Source of the DNA: Candidatus Asgardarchaeum abyssi
GTDB lineage: Archaea > Asgardarchaeota > Asgardarchaeia > Asgardarchaeales > Asgardarchaeaceae
Assembly (NCBI GenBank): GCA_040225955.1
Contig: JBECUL010000045.1
Location: forward strand, 1-17,358
Reading direction: 5' to 3'
Length of the DNA: 17,358 nucleotides
Part shown: piece by piece, positions 4,400 through 10,847 of the stretch
Layout: each line of letters opens with the position of its first letter
Position numbering within the stretch: position 1 is the stretch's first letter
The notes under the pieces: generated by a model
Told to the model about the DNA's origin: nothing
Database searches by the model: none
What the model saw: only the letters and a program-made list of their open reading frames with translations
Program-made: the position numbers and the translations under genes

Positions 4400-5815
4400 T
4401 TATACATTCTTAGAAATTTCAATTTCTCTACTAACTTTAATTTTCTCCTTTAGTAATATATCTCTCGCTGCAATGACGCCTGAAATGCTTGCTTGCATAA
4501 GGCCTCTTGTTATACCAGCACCATCTCCAATAGTGTATAGATTCTTAATGTATGGACTCTCCATATTGCTTTTTACATCAATGTGTGCTGTATAAAATTT
4601 TGCTTCAACGCCATATAATAAAGTATGTTCACTATATACACCTGGTGCAACCTTGTCTATTGCCTTTAACATCTCTATAATATCAGAAAGATGTCTGTAT
4701 GGAATAACGAAGCTAAGATCACCTGGTACAGCAAGTTTTAAAGTAGGTTCTACAATAGATTTTTTTATCCTTTCTGGTGTGCTTCGTCTACCCATGATTA
4801 AATCTCCAAGCCTTTGAACTATGACAGAACCACCTGATAACATATTTGCAAGCCTTGCAACATGTTTTGCATATTCTATTGGTGATTTAAAGGGCTCTGT
4901 AAAACTACTACTTACCAGTATTGCAAAATTTGTATTGTTGCTCTTTTTATCCCTGTAACTTTGACCATTAACTAAAACAGTATCACTATATACCTCTAAT
5001 GTAACAAAACCATATGGGTTCACACAAAATGTTCTAACTCTATCATCAAATCTTTTTGTAAAGTACTCAAATTTTGGTTCATATAAGACGTTAGTCAGAG
5101 GTTCCATAACCTCTGCTGGGACTTCAACTCTAACTCCTATATCAACTAGGCTCAATTTTAATTTAATACCTAATCGTTTCGCTTCCTCTTTAAACCAATC
5201 AGCCCCTTCACGGCCAGGAGCAACAATTACATACTTTGCGTATACTTTTTCACCATTTTTTAGTTCTATGCCGATGACTTTTTTGTCTTCTGTTAAAATA
5301 CGTTTAACTGGTTTTCTAAAGAAAATATCAATACTTTTGCTTATATGATCATACATATTTCTTAATGCTCTTTGAGCTACTTCGGTACCTAAATGGTTTA
5401 CAGTATATGGTATCAATCTTAAGTCGGCTAAAATCGCCTTTTTTCTTATTTTTTCTACTTCATCCATATCTATTGGATTAGGTGGCTTTATTTTCCCAAA
5501 TCTAGAAAACATTAGGTTAACGTAATTAATTAAATCATCCAAAACTTTATCATCAACATATTCGCTTAACCATCCACCTACTTCCTTACTCAATGTAAGT
5601 TTACCATCACTAAAAGCTCCAGCTCCTCCCCATCCACATAAAAGATGACATGGAACACAACGAATGCATGGTTTTCCCTGAAGAACTTGACAGTGTCTTT
5701 GATCGAGAGGGTTTCCTTTTTCAAAAATTGCTATTTTCAGTCCAGAATTTACAAGTTCTAGAGCTGAGAATATACCCGCAGGTCCAGCTCCAATGATAAC
5801 AACATCATAATTCAC
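4400..5815 (-). CDS. FAD-dependent oxidoreductase/dehydrogenase (COG2509-like)
   Basis: DVVIIGAGPAG Rossmann motif, GWGGAGAFSDGKL, VRTFCVNPYG and IGDGAGITRGL. Cys-rich insert C-x7-C-x2-C-x2-C. GTG start with GGGTGA SD. Confidence 0.88.
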   Translation of the reverse strand: MNYDVVIIGAGPAGIFSALELVNSGLKIAIFEKGNPLDQRHCQVLQGKPCIRCVPCHLLCGWGGAGAFSDGKLTLSKEVGGWLSEYVDDKVLDDLINYVNLMFSRFGKIKPPNPIDMDEVEKIRKKAILADLRLIPYTVNHLGTEVAQRALRNMYDHISKSIDIFFRKPVKRILTEDKKVIGIELKNGEKVYAKYVIVAPGREGADWFKEEAKRLGIKLKLSLVDIGVRVEVPAEVMEPLTNVLYEPKFEYFTKRFDDRVRTFCVNPYGFVTLEVYSDTVLVNGQSYRDKKSNNTNFAILVSSSFTEPFKSPIEYAKHVARLANMLSGGSVIVQRLGDLIMGRRSTPERIKKSIVEPTLKLAVPGDLSFVIPYRHLSDIIEMLKAIDKVAPGVYSEHTLLYGVEAKFYTAHIDVKSNMESPYIKNLYTIGDGAGITRGLMQASISGVIAARDILLKEKIKVSREIEISKNV

Positions 5816-5938
5816 TAAGGTTCACCCAAAAAAGGTAGTTTTTTTATAATTTAAAATTTTTGAAAGAATCGGAGTTTAACGTGCAATTATCTAATTGTAT
5901 GTGCAAAATTACCAAAAAATGTAATAGAAAAATTTTTA

Positions 5939-5974
5939 TTTCTTATATTCAAGTTTTAACTTGAATATAAGAAA
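5939..5974. promoter_or_regulatory. Perfect 17-bp inverted repeat (2-nt spacer), candidate operator
   Basis: TTTCTTATATTCAAGTT-TT-AACTTGAATATAAGAAA, ending immediately before the SD GAGGTGA (5975-5981) of the ECF S-component gene, in a divergent intergenic region. Confidence 0.7.
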
Positions 5975-5986
5975 GAGGTGACTTTT

Positions 5987-6682
5987 ATGTTTGTACCCAA
6001 AAATAAGACTCTAGAGGTTGCATTTCTAGCCGTTATGACCCCATTCGTAACAGTATTAACATATATGTTTATATTTCCAATACCAGAAACTCATGGATAC
6101 TTTAACTTTGGAGAAGTAGGTATCTATATAGCTGCTGCTCTCTTTGGTCCAATTGTTGGTGCATTTGCTGGTGGAGTTGGATCGATGATAGCAGATATTA
6201 TTTCTGGTTATATCATCTATGCTCCTGCAACCCTAATAATAAAAGGAACTGAAGGACTGATTGTAGGATATTTAGTGAGAAAACTAAGAACAATTAATGT
6301 AACTCAACAGCAAATAGCATCTGGGGCTGGCGCTGTCTTGCTTAGCGGGATGGTAATTTCGGTATGGTATTGGACTATTTTACCACTATGGATATGGATA
6401 ATATACGGATTGTTGATAATTACTCTTGTAATATTCTCGCTCATGAAAATAGAAAGGGAAGAGCTACCATTAGTAATTTCAATGGTACTTGGTGGCATGG
6501 TAATGATTTCAGGTTACTTTATATATGAGCAGTTCTACTTAGGCTATCCCGCTATATTTGAATTGCCCTTTAACATAATGCAAATGGTAGGCGGAATAAT
6601 TATCAGCATACCAGTGATAAAAATAGTAAAATTTGCAATTACCAGCATGGGAATATCATTTGAGGTTATAGGAGAAGAGTGA
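5987..6682 (+). CDS. ECF transporter substrate-specific S component (HmpT/PdxU2-like, COG4720-type)
   Basis: GYFNFGEVGIYIAAALFGPIVGAFAGGVGSMIADII.GY..YAPATLIIKG.EG and C-terminal ELPFNIMQMVGG motifs; highly hydrophobic. Start moved to ATG 5987 because GTG 5978 lies inside the SD. Confidence 0.88.
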   Translation: MFVPKNKTLEVAFLAVMTPFVTVLTYMFIFPIPETHGYFNFGEVGIYIAAALFGPIVGAFAGGVGSMIADIISGYIIYAPATLIIKGTEGLIVGYLVRKLRTINVTQQQIASGAGAVLLSGMVISVWYWTILPLWIWIIYGLLIITLVIFSLMKIEREELPLVISMVLGGMVMISGYFIYEQFYLGYPAIFELPFNIMQMVGGIIISIPVIKIVKFAITSMGISFEVIGEE

Positions 6683-8093
6683 TTTCTTCGAATGCCTCAA
6701 GAAGCCTCTTTCCTTTTTCTGTAATTTTGTAATATTTTCTTCTATCTTTTGTAGTCTCATCGACTAACCCTTTCTCTCTAAGTTCTTGCAGATGCTGGTA
6801 AATAGCTTGAAACTTTAAATCAGGCTTTACTTTCTTCCAAATCTCATAACCATATGAGGGACCAAATGTTAAAAATCTAAGAATCTCTATTTTAGTAGAA
6901 ACTTTAGGATATATAGTTTTTTGACCCCGCTTACTAACAAAGGCATCTAAAATATAAGAAGCTTTAAGCCCGCTTCCAGTTACTAAAGCAACTATTTTCT
7001 CATCACCCTCTATAATATTCATCTCTTTTAAAAGCTTTATTGAGGCTATGCCAACAGCACTTGCTGGCTCTGCAAAGATGGCTTCATGTTTTGCTAACAT
7101 TTTTTCAGCTTCAGAGATGCTCTTTTCTTCAACAGAAACAGCCAATCCTTTTGTCTCTCTTAGTATTTTAATTACTAAGTCAATAAATAAAGGCTTTTTG
7201 ACGTATAAACCTAATGCAGAAGTAGGACCCAAACTTTCCGTAGTTTCACCGCTATGGAACTTTGAAACTATAGGAGAACATTTACTAGGTTGAGCTATCA
7301 CAAACTTAGGCATATTATTAATGAGTCCTAAAATCTTTAACTCTTGAAAACCTTTCCAAAGTGATACCAGAGAGCTCCCACTTCCTGTAGGTACTATCAT
7401 TATATCTGGAATCGAACCCAATTGCATGTATATTTCATAAGATATTGTTTTTTGTCCCTCTATTGCTAGTGCATTAAATTCTGGAGTTGCATTATAAGCT
7501 TTTCTTTCAATTGCTATTTTTCTGGAAAAATCAAAAGTATCATCAACAGAATCGCCATGAGTTATTACATTCCCTCCAAATGCAATGATCTGAGCTAGTT
7601 TCCCATAATCAACATTTCTAGGAACCACTATAATGCTTTCAAGTCTAGCTTTTGAAGCATAAGCAGCGATAGAGGCTCCCATATTGCCATTTGTTGAGCA
7701 AACAATTTTAGAATATTTTAATTTCTTCGCAATGGAGACAATTAATGAGGCAGCTCTGTCACGAAAACTATTTGTTGGATTTTTTGTTTCATCCTTTAGA
7801 AATAGGTGAGTAACATTTAATTGCTTTTTTAAATTATTTGCATGAATAAAAGGTGTATTTCCTTCTCCCAAGCTAATACTGCTAATGCTTTGAATTGGGA
7901 AAAAATCCCTAAATGACCATATGGATGAAATTTTCTGATTTGATATTAAATTTAACATTTTTTCCCTTAAATAAGCTAAATCTTTCTTTTCTAAAGAATA
8001 AAACATCAATTTTCCGCATTTCGGACAAATGAAATTTTCGTAATTAATTTCAGAGTCCTCATACCCACAGTTGTAGCATTTCATATAAAACAT
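6666..8093 (-). CDS. Threonine-synthase-like (fold-type II PLP) protein with N-terminal Zn ribbon and C-terminal PadR-type wHTH; Schiff-base Lys replaced by Arg
   Basis: CYNC...CPKC; SLGEGNTP; KDETKNPTNSFRDR (canonical NPTGSFKDR); EGQKTISYEI; VPTGSG; EPASA; VTGSGLK. Then EILRFLTFGPSYGYEIWKK...AIYQHLQELREKGLV...RRKYYKITEKG, a PadR signature. Start may be 8084. Confidence 0.9.
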   Translation of the reverse strand: MFYMKCYNCGYEDSEINYENFICPKCGKLMFYSLEKKDLAYLREKMLNLISNQKISSIWSFRDFFPIQSISSISLGEGNTPFIHANNLKKQLNVTHLFLKDETKNPTNSFRDRAASLIVSIAKKLKYSKIVCSTNGNMGASIAAYASKARLESIIVVPRNVDYGKLAQIIAFGGNVITHGDSVDDTFDFSRKIAIERKAYNATPEFNALAIEGQKTISYEIYMQLGSIPDIMIVPTGSGSSLVSLWKGFQELKILGLINNMPKFVIAQPSKCSPIVSKFHSGETTESLGPTSALGLYVKKPLFIDLVIKILRETKGLAVSVEEKSISEAEKMLAKHEAIFAEPASAVGIASIKLLKEMNIIEGDEKIVALVTGSGLKASYILDAFVSKRGQKTIYPKVSTKIEILRFLTFGPSYGYEIWKKVKPDLKFQAIYQHLQELREKGLVDETTKDRRKYYKITEKGKRLLEAFEEITLLL

Positions 8094-8161
8094 TTGAAGT
8101 CACTAGGCATTTCTTTTTTAAATAATAAAGCAAGTTATCTTATATTTTTTGTTACGAGAGC

Positions 8162-8179
8162 TTGTTTTGTGCAAAACAA
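8162..8179. promoter_or_regulatory. 8-bp perfect inverted repeat between the nrdG stop and the thrC-like promoter (operator or terminator)
   Basis: TTGTTTTG-TG-CAAAACAA. Confidence 0.4.
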
Positions 8180-8188
8180 AATAATTAA

Positions 8189-8893
8189 TCAAACAAAACC
8201 TCTAATAAAAACTGATTTTACATAAGGTTTTACAATTTCTTTAATCTTAAGAGCATCCCTATATGTAAATGGGTTTTGATTCCTAAGTTTCAAATCAAGA
8301 ACATTTTCATTCTCATATTTTTGCAAGTAATATACTTTCGCTCCTTTAATCATTTGGGCTATTTTCTTGAAGTCGTTAATTGAAAGAAGAGGATGTAGTG
8401 TAGTTCGAAATTCATATTCTACACCACTATTCATAACTATTGATATTGATTCACTAATGAGACTTATATCTAAATTTGATACTCCTGTGACAATTGGATA
8501 TTTCTCAAACGGCGCTTTGATGTCCATTGCTAGATAATCTACCAGCTTTTCATTAATTACTTTCTTTAAGAATTTAGGATTAGATCCGTTTGTTTCAAGT
8601 TGAACAAGATAGCCAAGATTTTTCACTTTTCTCATGAACTCTAATAATTGTTCGCCATGAATTGTTGGTTCTCCTCCAGTTATACTTAATGCATCCAGCA
8701 GCCCCTTTCTCTTCTTGAGATATTCCAAGATCTCTTTCTCATCATAAAGCTTCTTGGGGAAATGCTCTGGGATAACTAACTGATAGTTCTGGCAAAATGG
8801 GCACCTAAAGTTACAACCAAGGGTAAATACAACAGCGCTTACTTTGTCTGGATATTCTATTAAGCTGCTACGCTGAAAACCCCCAAATTTCAT
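8189..8893 (-). CDS. nrdG: Anaerobic ribonucleoside-triphosphate reductase activating protein (radical SAM)
   Basis: GCNFRCPFCQN (CxxxCxxC), ITGGEPT, LETNGS, AMDIKAP, YEFRTT. Directly downstream of nrdD. Confidence 0.95.
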   Translation of the reverse strand: MKFGGFQRSSLIEYPDKVSAVVFTLGCNFRCPFCQNYQLVIPEHFPKKLYDEKEILEYLKKRKGLLDALSITGGEPTIHGEQLLEFMRKVKNLGYLVQLETNGSNPKFLKKVINEKLVDYLAMDIKAPFEKYPIVTGVSNLDISLISESISIVMNSGVEYEFRTTLHPLLSINDFKKIAQMIKGAKVYYLQKYENENVLDLKLRNQNPFTYRDALKIKEIVKPYVKSVFIRGFV

Positions 8894-8942
8894 CTTATAC
8901 TTCTCCTATCTTATTTCAAACAAATGAAAAATAGTAAAATGT

Positions 8943-10847
8943 TTACACATATTTCTGAGATGTCTCTGATGGTCTGAGAAGTGTAAATAATTTGTCATAT
9001 GTAACTCTATCTTTGAATTCTTCTTGTTTACCGTCATTCCATTGTTGCACAGGTCTTAAATAGCCTACTACTCTACTATAGACTTCACATTCAACTTTTA
9101 TTCCTAATTCTTCTTCACATTTTGGACAGTAGTAATGCTTGCCCGATAGATATCCGTGTACTGAGCATACACTGAATGTTGGAGTTATTGTAAAGTATGG
9201 TAACCTATAATTATGAGTGATTTTCTTAACTAGATCACGAACAGCCTTCCACGACGGGGCTCTCTCACCTAGATATATGTGTAAAACAGTTCCACCAGTA
9301 TATTTTGTTTGTAATTCATCTTGTAAATCTAAAACTTCAAATATGTCATCCGTGTAGTTAACAGGAAGCCATGTCGAGTTTGTATAGTATGGAGCAGCTC
9401 CTTTTTCTCGTACAGCTTTTTCATTAGCTACAATTATATCTGGATATTTCTTTTTATCTATTTTCGCTAAGCGATAAGACGTACCCTCTGCAGGAGTAGC
9501 TTCTAAATTATAAAGATTATTTGTTTCTATTTGAAATTCTCTTATTCTTTCAAGCATATGATCCATAACTTTTAATGCAAATTTTAAACCTTCTTTGTCT
9601 CCAATAGTGACTCCCATAAAGTTTAATAAAGCCTCATTCATACCTATTAAACCTATTGTTGAGAAATGATTAGCCCAATATTTTCCATACATTTGTTTGA
9701 CTGATCTTAAATAGTACTTTGAATATGGATAGAGTCCCATTTCGGTATACTTTTCAATAACTTTTCTCTTTAATTCAAGACTATCTCTTGCCAATTCCAT
9801 TAAATGATCCAACCTCTCAAAGAAATCATCATCATCTTTCGCCAAATATCCTATTCTCGGCATATTAATCGTAACAACACCAACACTTCCCGTTAATGGA
9901 TTGGCTCCAAATAACCCCCCACCTCTACGGTAAAGTTCTCTGTTATCTAAACGTAAATGGCAACACATAGACCTAACATCTTCAGGATTCATATCAGAAT
10001 TTATAAAGTTAGCAAAATATGGAATTCCGTATTTTGCAGTCATTTCCCATATAGGTCTGAATTTCTCACTCTCCCAGTCAAAGTCCTTAGTTATATTTAT
10101 TGTCGGAATTGGAAATGTGAAAACTCTTCCCTTTGCATCTCCTTCCATCATTACTTCAGCAAATGCTCTATTTATGATCTCCATTTCTTCAATGAAATCA
10201 GAGTATGTTTCATTCATTTCCATTCCGCCGATAATTACTGGCTCATTTGCCATGAACCTTGGAGGTTGTAAATCTATTGTTATATTTGTAAATGGTGTTT
10301 GCCCACCAACTCTTGTTGGTACATTCATATTGTATAGAAATTCTTGCATAGCTTGTTTTACTTCGTTGTATGATAGATTGTCGTATCTTATGAATGGAGC
10401 TAAATATGTATCAAAGTTTGATATCGCTTGAGCTCCGGCAGCTTCACCTTGTAGTGTATAAAATAAATTAACAAGCTGACCTAATGCAACTCTGAAATGT
10501 TTTGGTGGTCTAGATTCAATTTTTCCCCTTGCCCCTCTAAATCCAACTTTAAGGAAATCACGTAAATCCCAGCCTACGCAATATGCAGAAAGCATGCCTA
10601 AATCATGAATATGAAAGTCACCGTCTATATGTGCATGTGCAACGTCTTCTGGATAGATTTCTGTTAGCCAGAATCTAGCAATTATTGAGGAAGAAATATG
10701 GAAATTTAATCCCTGAAGAGAGTAACCCATGTTAGAGTTTTCTCTAACACGCCAATCTAACCGATTAAGGTAAGAGTTAACAAGCTTTGTGACGTCAACA
10801 TTTTTAGTATTATTTATTTTTTCTTTTTTTTCAGTAAGAGTTTCCAT
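8943..10847 (-). CDS. nrdD: Class III (anaerobic) ribonucleotide reductase, without N-terminal ATP-cone
   Basis: DWRVRENSN, HIDGDFHIHDL, FTFPIPT, finger-loop SMCCHL, LEATPAEG, YTGGTVLH, Zn site CSVH...CPKC, glycyl-radical YSRVVGYL. SD AGGTGA at 10854-10859. Confidence 0.97.
   Translation of the reverse strand: METLTEKKEKINNTKNVDVTKLVNSYLNRLDWRVRENSNMGYSLQGLNFHISSSIIARFWLTEIYPEDVAHAHIDGDFHIHDLGMLSAYCVGWDLRDFLKVGFRGARGKIESRPPKHFRVALGQLVNLFYTLQGEAAGAQAISNFDTYLAPFIRYDNLSYNEVKQAMQEFLYNMNVPTRVGGQTPFTNITIDLQPPRFMANEPVIIGGMEMNETYSDFIEEMEIINRAFAEVMMEGDAKGRVFTFPIPTINITKDFDWESEKFRPIWEMTAKYGIPYFANFINSDMNPEDVRSMCCHLRLDNRELYRRGGGLFGANPLTGSVGVVTINMPRIGYLAKDDDDFFERLDHLMELARDSLELKRKVIEKYTEMGLYPYSKYYLRSVKQMYGKYWANHFSTIGLIGMNEALLNFMGVTIGDKEGLKFALKVMDHMLERIREFQIETNNLYNLEATPAEGTSYRLAKIDKKKYPDIIVANEKAVREKGAAPYYTNSTWLPVNYTDDIFEVLDLQDELQTKYTGGTVLHIYLGERAPSWKAVRDLVKKITHNYRLPYFTITPTFSVCSVHGYLSGKHYYCPKCEEELGIKVECEVYSRVVGYLRPVQQWNDGKQEEFKDRVTYDKLFTLLRPSETSQKYV

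Follow-up and report, generated by a model that had tools for sequence, protein, structure and literature searches.

We studied a locus of the archaeon Candidatus Asgardarchaeum abyssi in a stretch of 17,358 nucleotides (contig JBECUL010000045.1, here called the window), which is contig C45 of a 2.6-Mb Asgard metagenome-assembled genome (MAG) that is 93.5% complete and carries 7.8% contamination. The locus holds two convergent genes: one encodes a protein resembling threonine synthase (ThrC), with the fold of an enzyme dependent on pyridoxal 5'-phosphate (PLP), joined to a PadR-type winged helix (hereafter the fusion), and the other encodes a substrate-binding (S) component of an energy-coupling factor (ECF) transporter. 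Taken together, the results make it probable that the fusion is an archaeal vitamin B6 sensor-regulator which, when liganded, binds a palindrome at positions 5939-5974 and represses the neighbouring S-component gene, whose product would import a B6 vitamer. An initial annotation of this DNA had proposed that a PLP-fold sensor controls a B6-vitamer importer; this proposal is supported by gene linkage, by the family match of the S component and by a shared DNA motif, and on this footing we infer the ligand and the repression.

The gene neighbourhood of the fusion was compared at 58 loci with a full fusion, from Asgard archaea and Bathyarchaeia; the gene was present in 154 of 301 sampled Asgard genomes and was common in Bathyarchaeia too. 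An S-component homolog lay within about 700 bp of it at 35 of the 58 loci, pdxS-pdxT were its neighbours at ten, and neither was present at the other 13. The order of the fusion and S genes was convergent in Loki-type families, divergent in Thor-type genomes, and tandem, with the fusion first and the S gene second, in Odin-type genomes and Bathyarchaeia. With regard to pdxS, the two genes diverged in genome G040 and in each of the seven genomes of family f27 that bear the fusion, while in G006 and G096 pdxS was found downstream of the fusion on the same strand. No S component was detected beside PadR-less ThrC at about 27 loci taken as negative controls; bacterial genes of this kind made up most of the results of a single-protein search with the fusion. 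Linkage of the fusion to ECF S components or to pdxS/pdxT, a check suggested in the initial annotation, was thus seen at 45 of the 58 loci, in three gene orders and in many lineages. Its persistence across three gene orders, many families and a second phylum-level lineage means that it is not due to chance.

The palindrome upstream of the S gene, previously pointed out as an inverted repeat, is perfect and is the longest perfect inverted repeat of the window, with arms of 17 nt and a spacer of 2 nt. When the window was simulated 200 times with a Markov model, the longest arm did not pass 13 nt, and an arm of at least 12 nt in a comparable intergenic region had a simulated P of about 0.002; the palindrome occurs once in the 2.6-Mb genome. 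It is therefore far beyond chance expectation and unique in this genome. It starts at the 3' edge of a TATA-like block and covers the expected transcription start; together with an adjacent putative B recognition element (BRE), this block is, by the rules of archaeal promoters, the putative promoter of the S gene (see Table 1). Comparison of the spacer upstream of the S gene with that of locus L096, a relative with 60% identity, showed that only the BRE/TATA-like block, the palindrome and the Shine-Dalgarno (SD) sequence were kept, the remainder having diverged, and that the arms of the L096 palindrome carry a symmetric G>A / C>T change which preserves palindromy. In a closer relative, L123 (96% identity), the sole difference in the spacer region was found in the two central bases of the palindrome, TT to AA, both 17-nt arms being identical. 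This AA of L123 (L123:7105-7278), as compared with TT at 5956-5957 of the window, would fit either an inversion of the palindrome centre or an unconstrained spacer.

The bare core of the palindrome was found in five copies in the same genome, against about ten expected. None of the four further copies was located upstream of a gene start and the extended palindrome was absent from all of them; three were inside open reading frames (ORFs), and the one on contig C83 was in non-coding DNA downstream of the nearest gene. Since none of these copies is placed at a gene start or has the flanks, the regulon in this genome seems to consist of a single gene, that of the S component. A search with Rfam revealed no riboswitch or known RNA family between positions 5700 and 8300.

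Across genomes, the palindrome common to the regions upstream of S genes was usually TATA-YAAGTT-N2-AACTTR-TATA, often in two tandem copies, and the palindrome of the window is a perfect extended copy of it; a Thor-type variant reads TATAGG-N6-CCTATA, and both forms fit YARG-N6-CYTR. With up to one mismatch, AAGTTNNAACTT was present in 23 of 34 S-upstream regions (17 of them with exact copies), i.e., 4.7 per kb, as compared with 0.10 per kb in the remainder of the same loci, where exact copies amounted to 0 in about 300 kb. The pattern YARG-N6-CYTR reached 4.1 per kb ahead of S genes and, in genomes that carry the fusion, 2.8 per kb ahead of pdxS, as compared with 0.15 per kb in control DNA (1.0 Mb). 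The enrichment of the motif at S and pdxS genes over the surrounding DNA was about 30-50-fold.

Copies linked to PLP synthesis genes were found in the divergent pdxS-fusion spacers of loci L086, L087 and L089, ahead of the fusion-pdxS-pdxT operon of L095 and, as a pair, ahead of pdxS in G096. The motif also preceded pdxS genes unlinked to the fusion in G075 and G195 (with a degenerate copy in G037), and a fusion-unlinked S gene in G028. In G047 (L113, G047:C242) an S gene preceded by an exact motif was immediately followed by pdxS-pdxT on its own strand, and the genes for uptake and synthesis appear to form one operon. The core AAGTT-N2-AACTT was not found upstream of pdxS in four genomes without the fusion, in which YARG-N6-CYTR gave one pdxS-upstream match (L118) that may be due to chance; nor did five relatives have the motif ahead of their PF08543 kinase genes. 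The recurrence of the core upstream of S and pdxS genes in fusion-bearing genomes suggests that the palindrome is, as had been supposed, a site tied to the regulator-importer pair.

Results of domain searches and modelling of the fusion were in agreement with a regulatory role. The Pfam model of PadR (PF03551) matched residues 404-466 with 43.9 bits (cut-off, 27; E, 2.4e-11), and the PadR tail matched a solved PadR protein (9qbc_A) at 2.8e-5. An AlphaFold model made from 55 sequences (predicted local distance difference test, pLDDT, 90.6) presented the ThrC fold, a flexible linker and a winged helix consisting of helices 395-408, 415-422 and 428-440, a beta wing at 444-457 and helix 459-474; residues Y432, Q433 and H434 of the recognition helix were invariant in 55 family members. 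A homodimer prediction scored 0.27 against a mark of 0.42, which speaks neither for nor against a dimer. The top Foldseek matches of the model were threonine synthases, with template modelling (TM) scores up to 0.87 on the target, and the fusion was 28-30% identical to solved ThrC proteins. The hallmark of threonine synthases, the Schiff-base lysine within the S-F-K-D-R motif, was not found: the residue in the fusion is Arg111. In a joint alignment this position was Arg in 117 of 121 family members versus Lys in all nine canonical PadR-less ThrC proteins, and Arg was likewise present in 116 of the 120 closest homologs. The PLP site was otherwise invariant or nearly so, including the G-N loop, the G-S-G-G-T phosphate loop, T372 and the T-G-S-G-L-K motif. 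Position 210, aligned to a ThrC arginine that we take to be a binder of the substrate phosphate, was mostly Val or Ala in the fusions, and position 138, right after the invariant G-N pair, was Leu or Met. One of these nine is a separate PadR-less ThrC paralog encoded on contig C114 of the same genome, which retains the lysine and aligns from residue 6. These features indicate that the fusion is most likely a one-component transcription factor rather than an enzyme with threonine synthase activity.

The NCBIfam model NF004170 (PRK05638), named "threonine synthase", matched the entire fusion, its PadR tail as well, with 425.3 bits against a cut-off of 421. Since the model spans the PadR tail, it describes the fusion family, and its enzyme name is misleading; NF004170 is an 'equivalog' model, and annotation pipelines have spread a probably wrong enzyme name across the fusion family. 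In a small FastTree phylogeny the fusions formed one clade, whose base was weakly supported (0.48), with PadR-less ThrC-like genes from two archaeal MAGs as the sister group. The four Lys-retaining fusions (P0046, P0047, P0093 and P0107), a small Loki-type group, were not clearly basal in this tree. At locus L100, where the fusion is one of those with Lys, an S component is again close by and has two exact copies of the operator; a fusion can therefore belong to the system without having lost the lysine.

The S component matched PF07155 at 3e-29, and so did 33 of 33 aligned family members match this model; PF07155 / COG4720 is the Pfam family that contains RibU, PdxU and HmpT/PdxU2. Among solved S components it sided with HmpT/PdxU2 and not with RibU. 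The best solved relative of the single sequence was HmpT/PdxU2 (4hzu_S) at 2e-15; the family profile gave 3e-28 for 4hzu_S, 0.0055 for RibU and 0.017 for BioY; and for the structural model, of eight helices (pLDDT 85), Foldseek gave one clear match, again 4hzu_S (TM 0.75 on the target). The reported pocket residues of HmpT are Glu41, His84, Tyr120, Asn140 and Gln143 (PMC4860826). Glu41, Tyr120, Asn140 and Gln143 have counterparts in the S component, E/D43, Y177, N196 and Q199 (numbered from the ATG), and His84 is replaced by a nearly invariant Lys (K86) in the archaeal S family. HmpT/PdxU2 has been reported as a binder of pyridoxamine (PMC4860826). An insertion of two helices was limited to a subset of the family (the window, L096, L005, L006, L045, L053, L094, L097 and L100). 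The S gene is solitary; the genome has nine homologs of EcfT (PF02361), one of them within an A-A'-T cluster on contig C69 that lacks a neighbouring S gene. The protein is most likely an S component of the HmpT/PdxU2 type for a B6 vitamer, and the transport of such a vitamer is suggested by the regulator and operator shared with pdxST and by the absence of PdxS from genomes that have the S gene.

Regarding the supply of vitamin B6, neither PdxS nor PdxT was found in this MAG by hidden Markov model (HMM) or by tblastn searches with Asgard queries, and PdxS was not found in four of five closed or near-complete relatives with the fusion and the S gene (G001, G146, G203 and G170). PdxS was present in 46 of the 301 sampled Asgard genomes; of the 90 with high quality, 10 had it. 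In the families where the fusion lies beside the S gene the counts of PdxS were 0/4 (f2), 0/76 (f5), 0/7 (f19) and 0/3 (f20); in family f27, where the fusion faces pdxS, it was present in 9 of 11 genomes, and in family f8 the sole genus with PdxS is without the fusion. The low number of PdxS genes suggests widespread vitamin B6 auxotrophy among Asgard archaea. A kinase of the PF08543 family (PdxK/ThiD) was not found in this MAG by HMM or tblastn, though a gene resembling ThiD, some 450 aa long, is present in all five relatives; its absence here may be explained by the incompleteness of the MAG or by import of a phosphorylated vitamer.

The mechanism that we propose is as follows. The sensor would be the ThrC fold-type II PLP domain, with its cofactor pocket kept and Arg in place of the Schiff-base Lys, and the output would be the PadR winged helix. 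Given that the PLP site is kept and no internal aldimine is possible, PLP or a close vitamer would bind reversibly. A dimer of the fusion, as suggested by the palindrome and by the dimeric habit of both parent families, would occupy positions 5939-5974, a site that overlaps the S promoter at its TATA box and start region. When the pocket is filled, most likely by non-covalent, reversible binding of PLP, the operator would be occupied and the importer off; when B6 is scarce, the operator would be released. This co-repressor model follows from an operator placed at the edge of the TATA block and across the start site, a position that in Archaea usually means repression. The solitary S component would associate with a shared EcfAA'T module whose genes lie elsewhere in the genome. 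Vitamin B6 is put forward as the controlled pathway because uptake and synthesis genes alternate and have a regulator and an operator in common; the nature of the ligand as PLP, the sign of repression, dimer binding and the vitamer transported are those that we infer from the above.

Several points weigh against this reading. No B6 gene adjoins the fusion at 13 of the 58 loci; among them are two short contig ends and three loci whose genomes have the operator motif before an S or pdxS gene not linked to the fusion. The sampled genomes are kin, and the locus counts overstate their independence. Some S or pdxS promoters show only a degenerate motif (Freya-type L005, L110 and L111). PdxR, the closest analogue (see below), is mainly an activator, as opposed to the repression suggested by the operator position here. 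No PF08543 kinase that would activate an imported unphosphorylated vitamer was found in this MAG. Another B6 vitamer, or an adduct of PLP with an amino acid, could be the ligand in place of PLP, and the evidence from domains, linkage and motif is all computational.

Other explanations of the locus were considered. A conceivable but unlikely version of B6 control has the S component importing PLP itself (or pyridoxal) instead of pyridoxamine by means of K86, with the regulator gauging free PLP reversibly and this import being the main B6 route of most Asgard archaea. As neither PdxS/T nor a PF08543 kinase was found here, direct uptake of PLP would then be the only source of the cofactor for the cell. 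It seems distinctly improbable that the module serves the uptake of hydroxymethylpyrimidine (HMP) or of another metabolite, and that the ThrC-like domain senses threonine, O-phosphohomoserine or another amino-acid metabolite: although HmpT was first predicted as an HMP carrier and the evidence on its substrate is limited (PMC4860826), one of its pocket residues is altered in our protein (His84 to Lys) and the sensor descends from an amino-acid enzyme, the same regulator family and operator motif are found in other lineages on pdxS-pdxT, the PLP synthase genes. Moreover, positions 210 (Val/Ala) and 138 (Leu/Met) of the fusions stand in contrast with the kept PLP loops, there is no thiamine pyrophosphate (TPP) or other riboswitch upstream of the S gene, and the ThiD-type kinase required for HMP salvage was not found in this genome.

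The palindrome could also act as RNA, i.e., as a hairpin in the 5' leader affecting stability or translation, or as a structural or recombination element, instead of being a protein operator. Its predicted RNA fold is of -18 kcal/mol (z = -4.6), and the symmetric change in L096 would keep a hairpin as well; however, the predicted hairpin leaves the SD sequence free and has no match in Rfam, and elsewhere the motif behaves as a transcription-factor site, placed at about -10 to -125 relative to the start codon, frequently in tandem pairs and with TATA-like flanks, and also in divergent spacers shared with the regulator gene. Furthermore, if the TATA block at 5927-5940 is the promoter, transcription begins inside the palindrome and the full hairpin would never be made. 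We judge this explanation very improbable. Hardly credible is the last alternative, an active threonine synthase with a mere DNA-binding tail whose adjacency to the S gene has no regulatory meaning: the fusion does pass NF004170 (425 bits vs 421) and its relatives are named threonine synthase in the sources, but Arg replaces the Schiff-base Lys in nearly the whole family (117/121), the genome has a canonical ThrC of its own as a paralog, and both the linkage with B6 genes and the shared operator motif would be left unexplained.

Table 1 Features of the regulator-importer locus (positions in the window)
Feature	Position	Strand	Description
Putative BRE/TATA of the S-component promoter	5927-5940	+	GAAAAA + TTTTTATT; conserved block GAAAAATTTTTA = 5927-5938
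Candidate operator	5939-5974		Perfect palindrome 17+2+17, core CAAGTT-TT-AACTTG
Shine-Dalgarno GAGGTGA	5975-5981	+	5 nt ahead of ATG 5987; read from the sequence; kept in L096, L123 and L124
S-component ORF	5987-6682	+	231 aa; ATG start likelier than GTG 5978
Two-helix insertion, aa ~104-155	about 6296-6451	+	Between core helices 4 and 5; pLDDT 56-70
ThrC-PadR fusion ORF	6666-8093	-	475 aa
PadR-type winged helix, aa 401-472	6678-6893	-	C-terminal; follows disordered linker aa 379-397
PALP (fold-type II) sensor domain, aa 73-373	6975-7877	-	E 4.5e-69
Arg111 codon in place of Schiff-base Lys	7761-7763	-	NPTNSFRDR aligned to NPTGSFKDR of solved ThrC
Zinc ribbon CxxC...CxxC, aa 1-30	8004-8093	-	C6, C9, C23 and C26 invariant in 55 family members

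The coordinates of these features are listed in Table 1. The ATG was preferred as the start of the S gene because of the SD sequence upstream of it and because the genes of relatives are called at 231 aa. The 3' convergence of the S-component and fusion genes with an overlap of 17 bp, as originally described, was confirmed, both ORFs sharing positions 6666-6682. The wider region (4400-10847) has the gene order nrdD - nrdG - fusion - S component - FAD-dependent protein (PF21688), which from nrdD to the PF21688 gene is kept in close relatives of the window only (L096 and L123). A second conserved block, TAATATAAAATTTTTGAAA, lies at about 5846-5866 in the divergent spacer and may be the promoter of the FAD-protein gene.

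A second inverted repeat (8162-8179), upstream of the fusion gene, had been listed in the initial annotation; it does not belong to the system. With arms of 8 nt and a spacer of 2 nt, it belongs to a class of which about 4.8 are expected per window and six distinct ones were observed; its P was about 0.07 for an AT-rich spacer of 95 nt. It does not resemble the motif at 5939-5974, has no counterpart in the 60%-identity relative L096, and is positioned 10 bp past the nrdG stop within T-rich tracts. As an autoregulatory operator it was therefore rejected, being at chance level, unlike the operator motif and unconserved; it is a chance repeat or at most part of the T-rich end of nrdG.

The view that the locus represents an undescribed archaeal regulon is in agreement with the literature: a search of full texts, which excluded subscription journals, gave no ThrC-PadR protein or archaeal B6 regulator. 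Knowledge of B6 transporters is poor for prokaryotes as a whole (PMC9997740), and the regulator-importer pair would fill both gaps, that of an archaeal B6 regulator and that of a B6 transporter. Reading the fusion as a regulator would correct a widespread misannotation as "threonine synthase" and, if true, would provide a clean example of a pseudoenzyme turned sensor, in which the loss of a single Lys makes cofactor binding reversible. The scarcity of PdxS points to a widespread dependence of Asgard archaea on partner organisms for B6, which bears on their cultivation and on syntrophy; should import of PLP itself be correct, the pair would be the main B6 supply of most Asgard archaea.

As compared with known systems, the fusion shares with ThrC (NF004170 / PRK05638) the fold and the N-terminal zinc ribbon, and differs from it in lacking the Schiff-base Lys and in the added PadR domain. 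The S component shares with HmpT/PdxU2 of Lactobacillus brevis (PDB 4HZU chain S) the family PF07155/COG4720 and the pocket Glu, Tyr, Asn and Gln, and is set apart by the change of His84 to Lys and by the two extra helices of this protein and a subset of its relatives. In the archaeal regulators ThiR (ThiN domain) and RbkR (riboflavin kinase), the fold of a pathway enzyme is joined to a winged helix-turn-helix (wHTH) that controls the genes for synthesis and uptake of that same vitamin. The logic of an enzyme fold as sensor is the same here, whereas the folds, the vitamin and the DNA-binding family differ. The bacterial PdxR/MocR regulators are likewise one-component proteins with a sensor of PLP-enzyme fold and repeated promoter boxes as operators. 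They consist of an N-terminal GntR wHTH and a fold-type I aminotransferase-like domain, as opposed to the fold-type II PALP and C-terminal PadR of the fusion, neither of which is homologous; Pfam found PALP and C-terminal PadR only, which places the fusion outside the MocR/PdxR family. As far as is known, MocR proteins keep the PLP lysine, in contrast with the Arg present in most fusions. MocR regulators have been reported absent from Archaea, and the regulons of PdxR comprise pdxST, pdxK and pdxU (PMC5320631), a content shared with the system found here (pdxST and a B6 ECF S component). The fusion is thus most likely a functional analogue of bacterial PdxR made from different domains.

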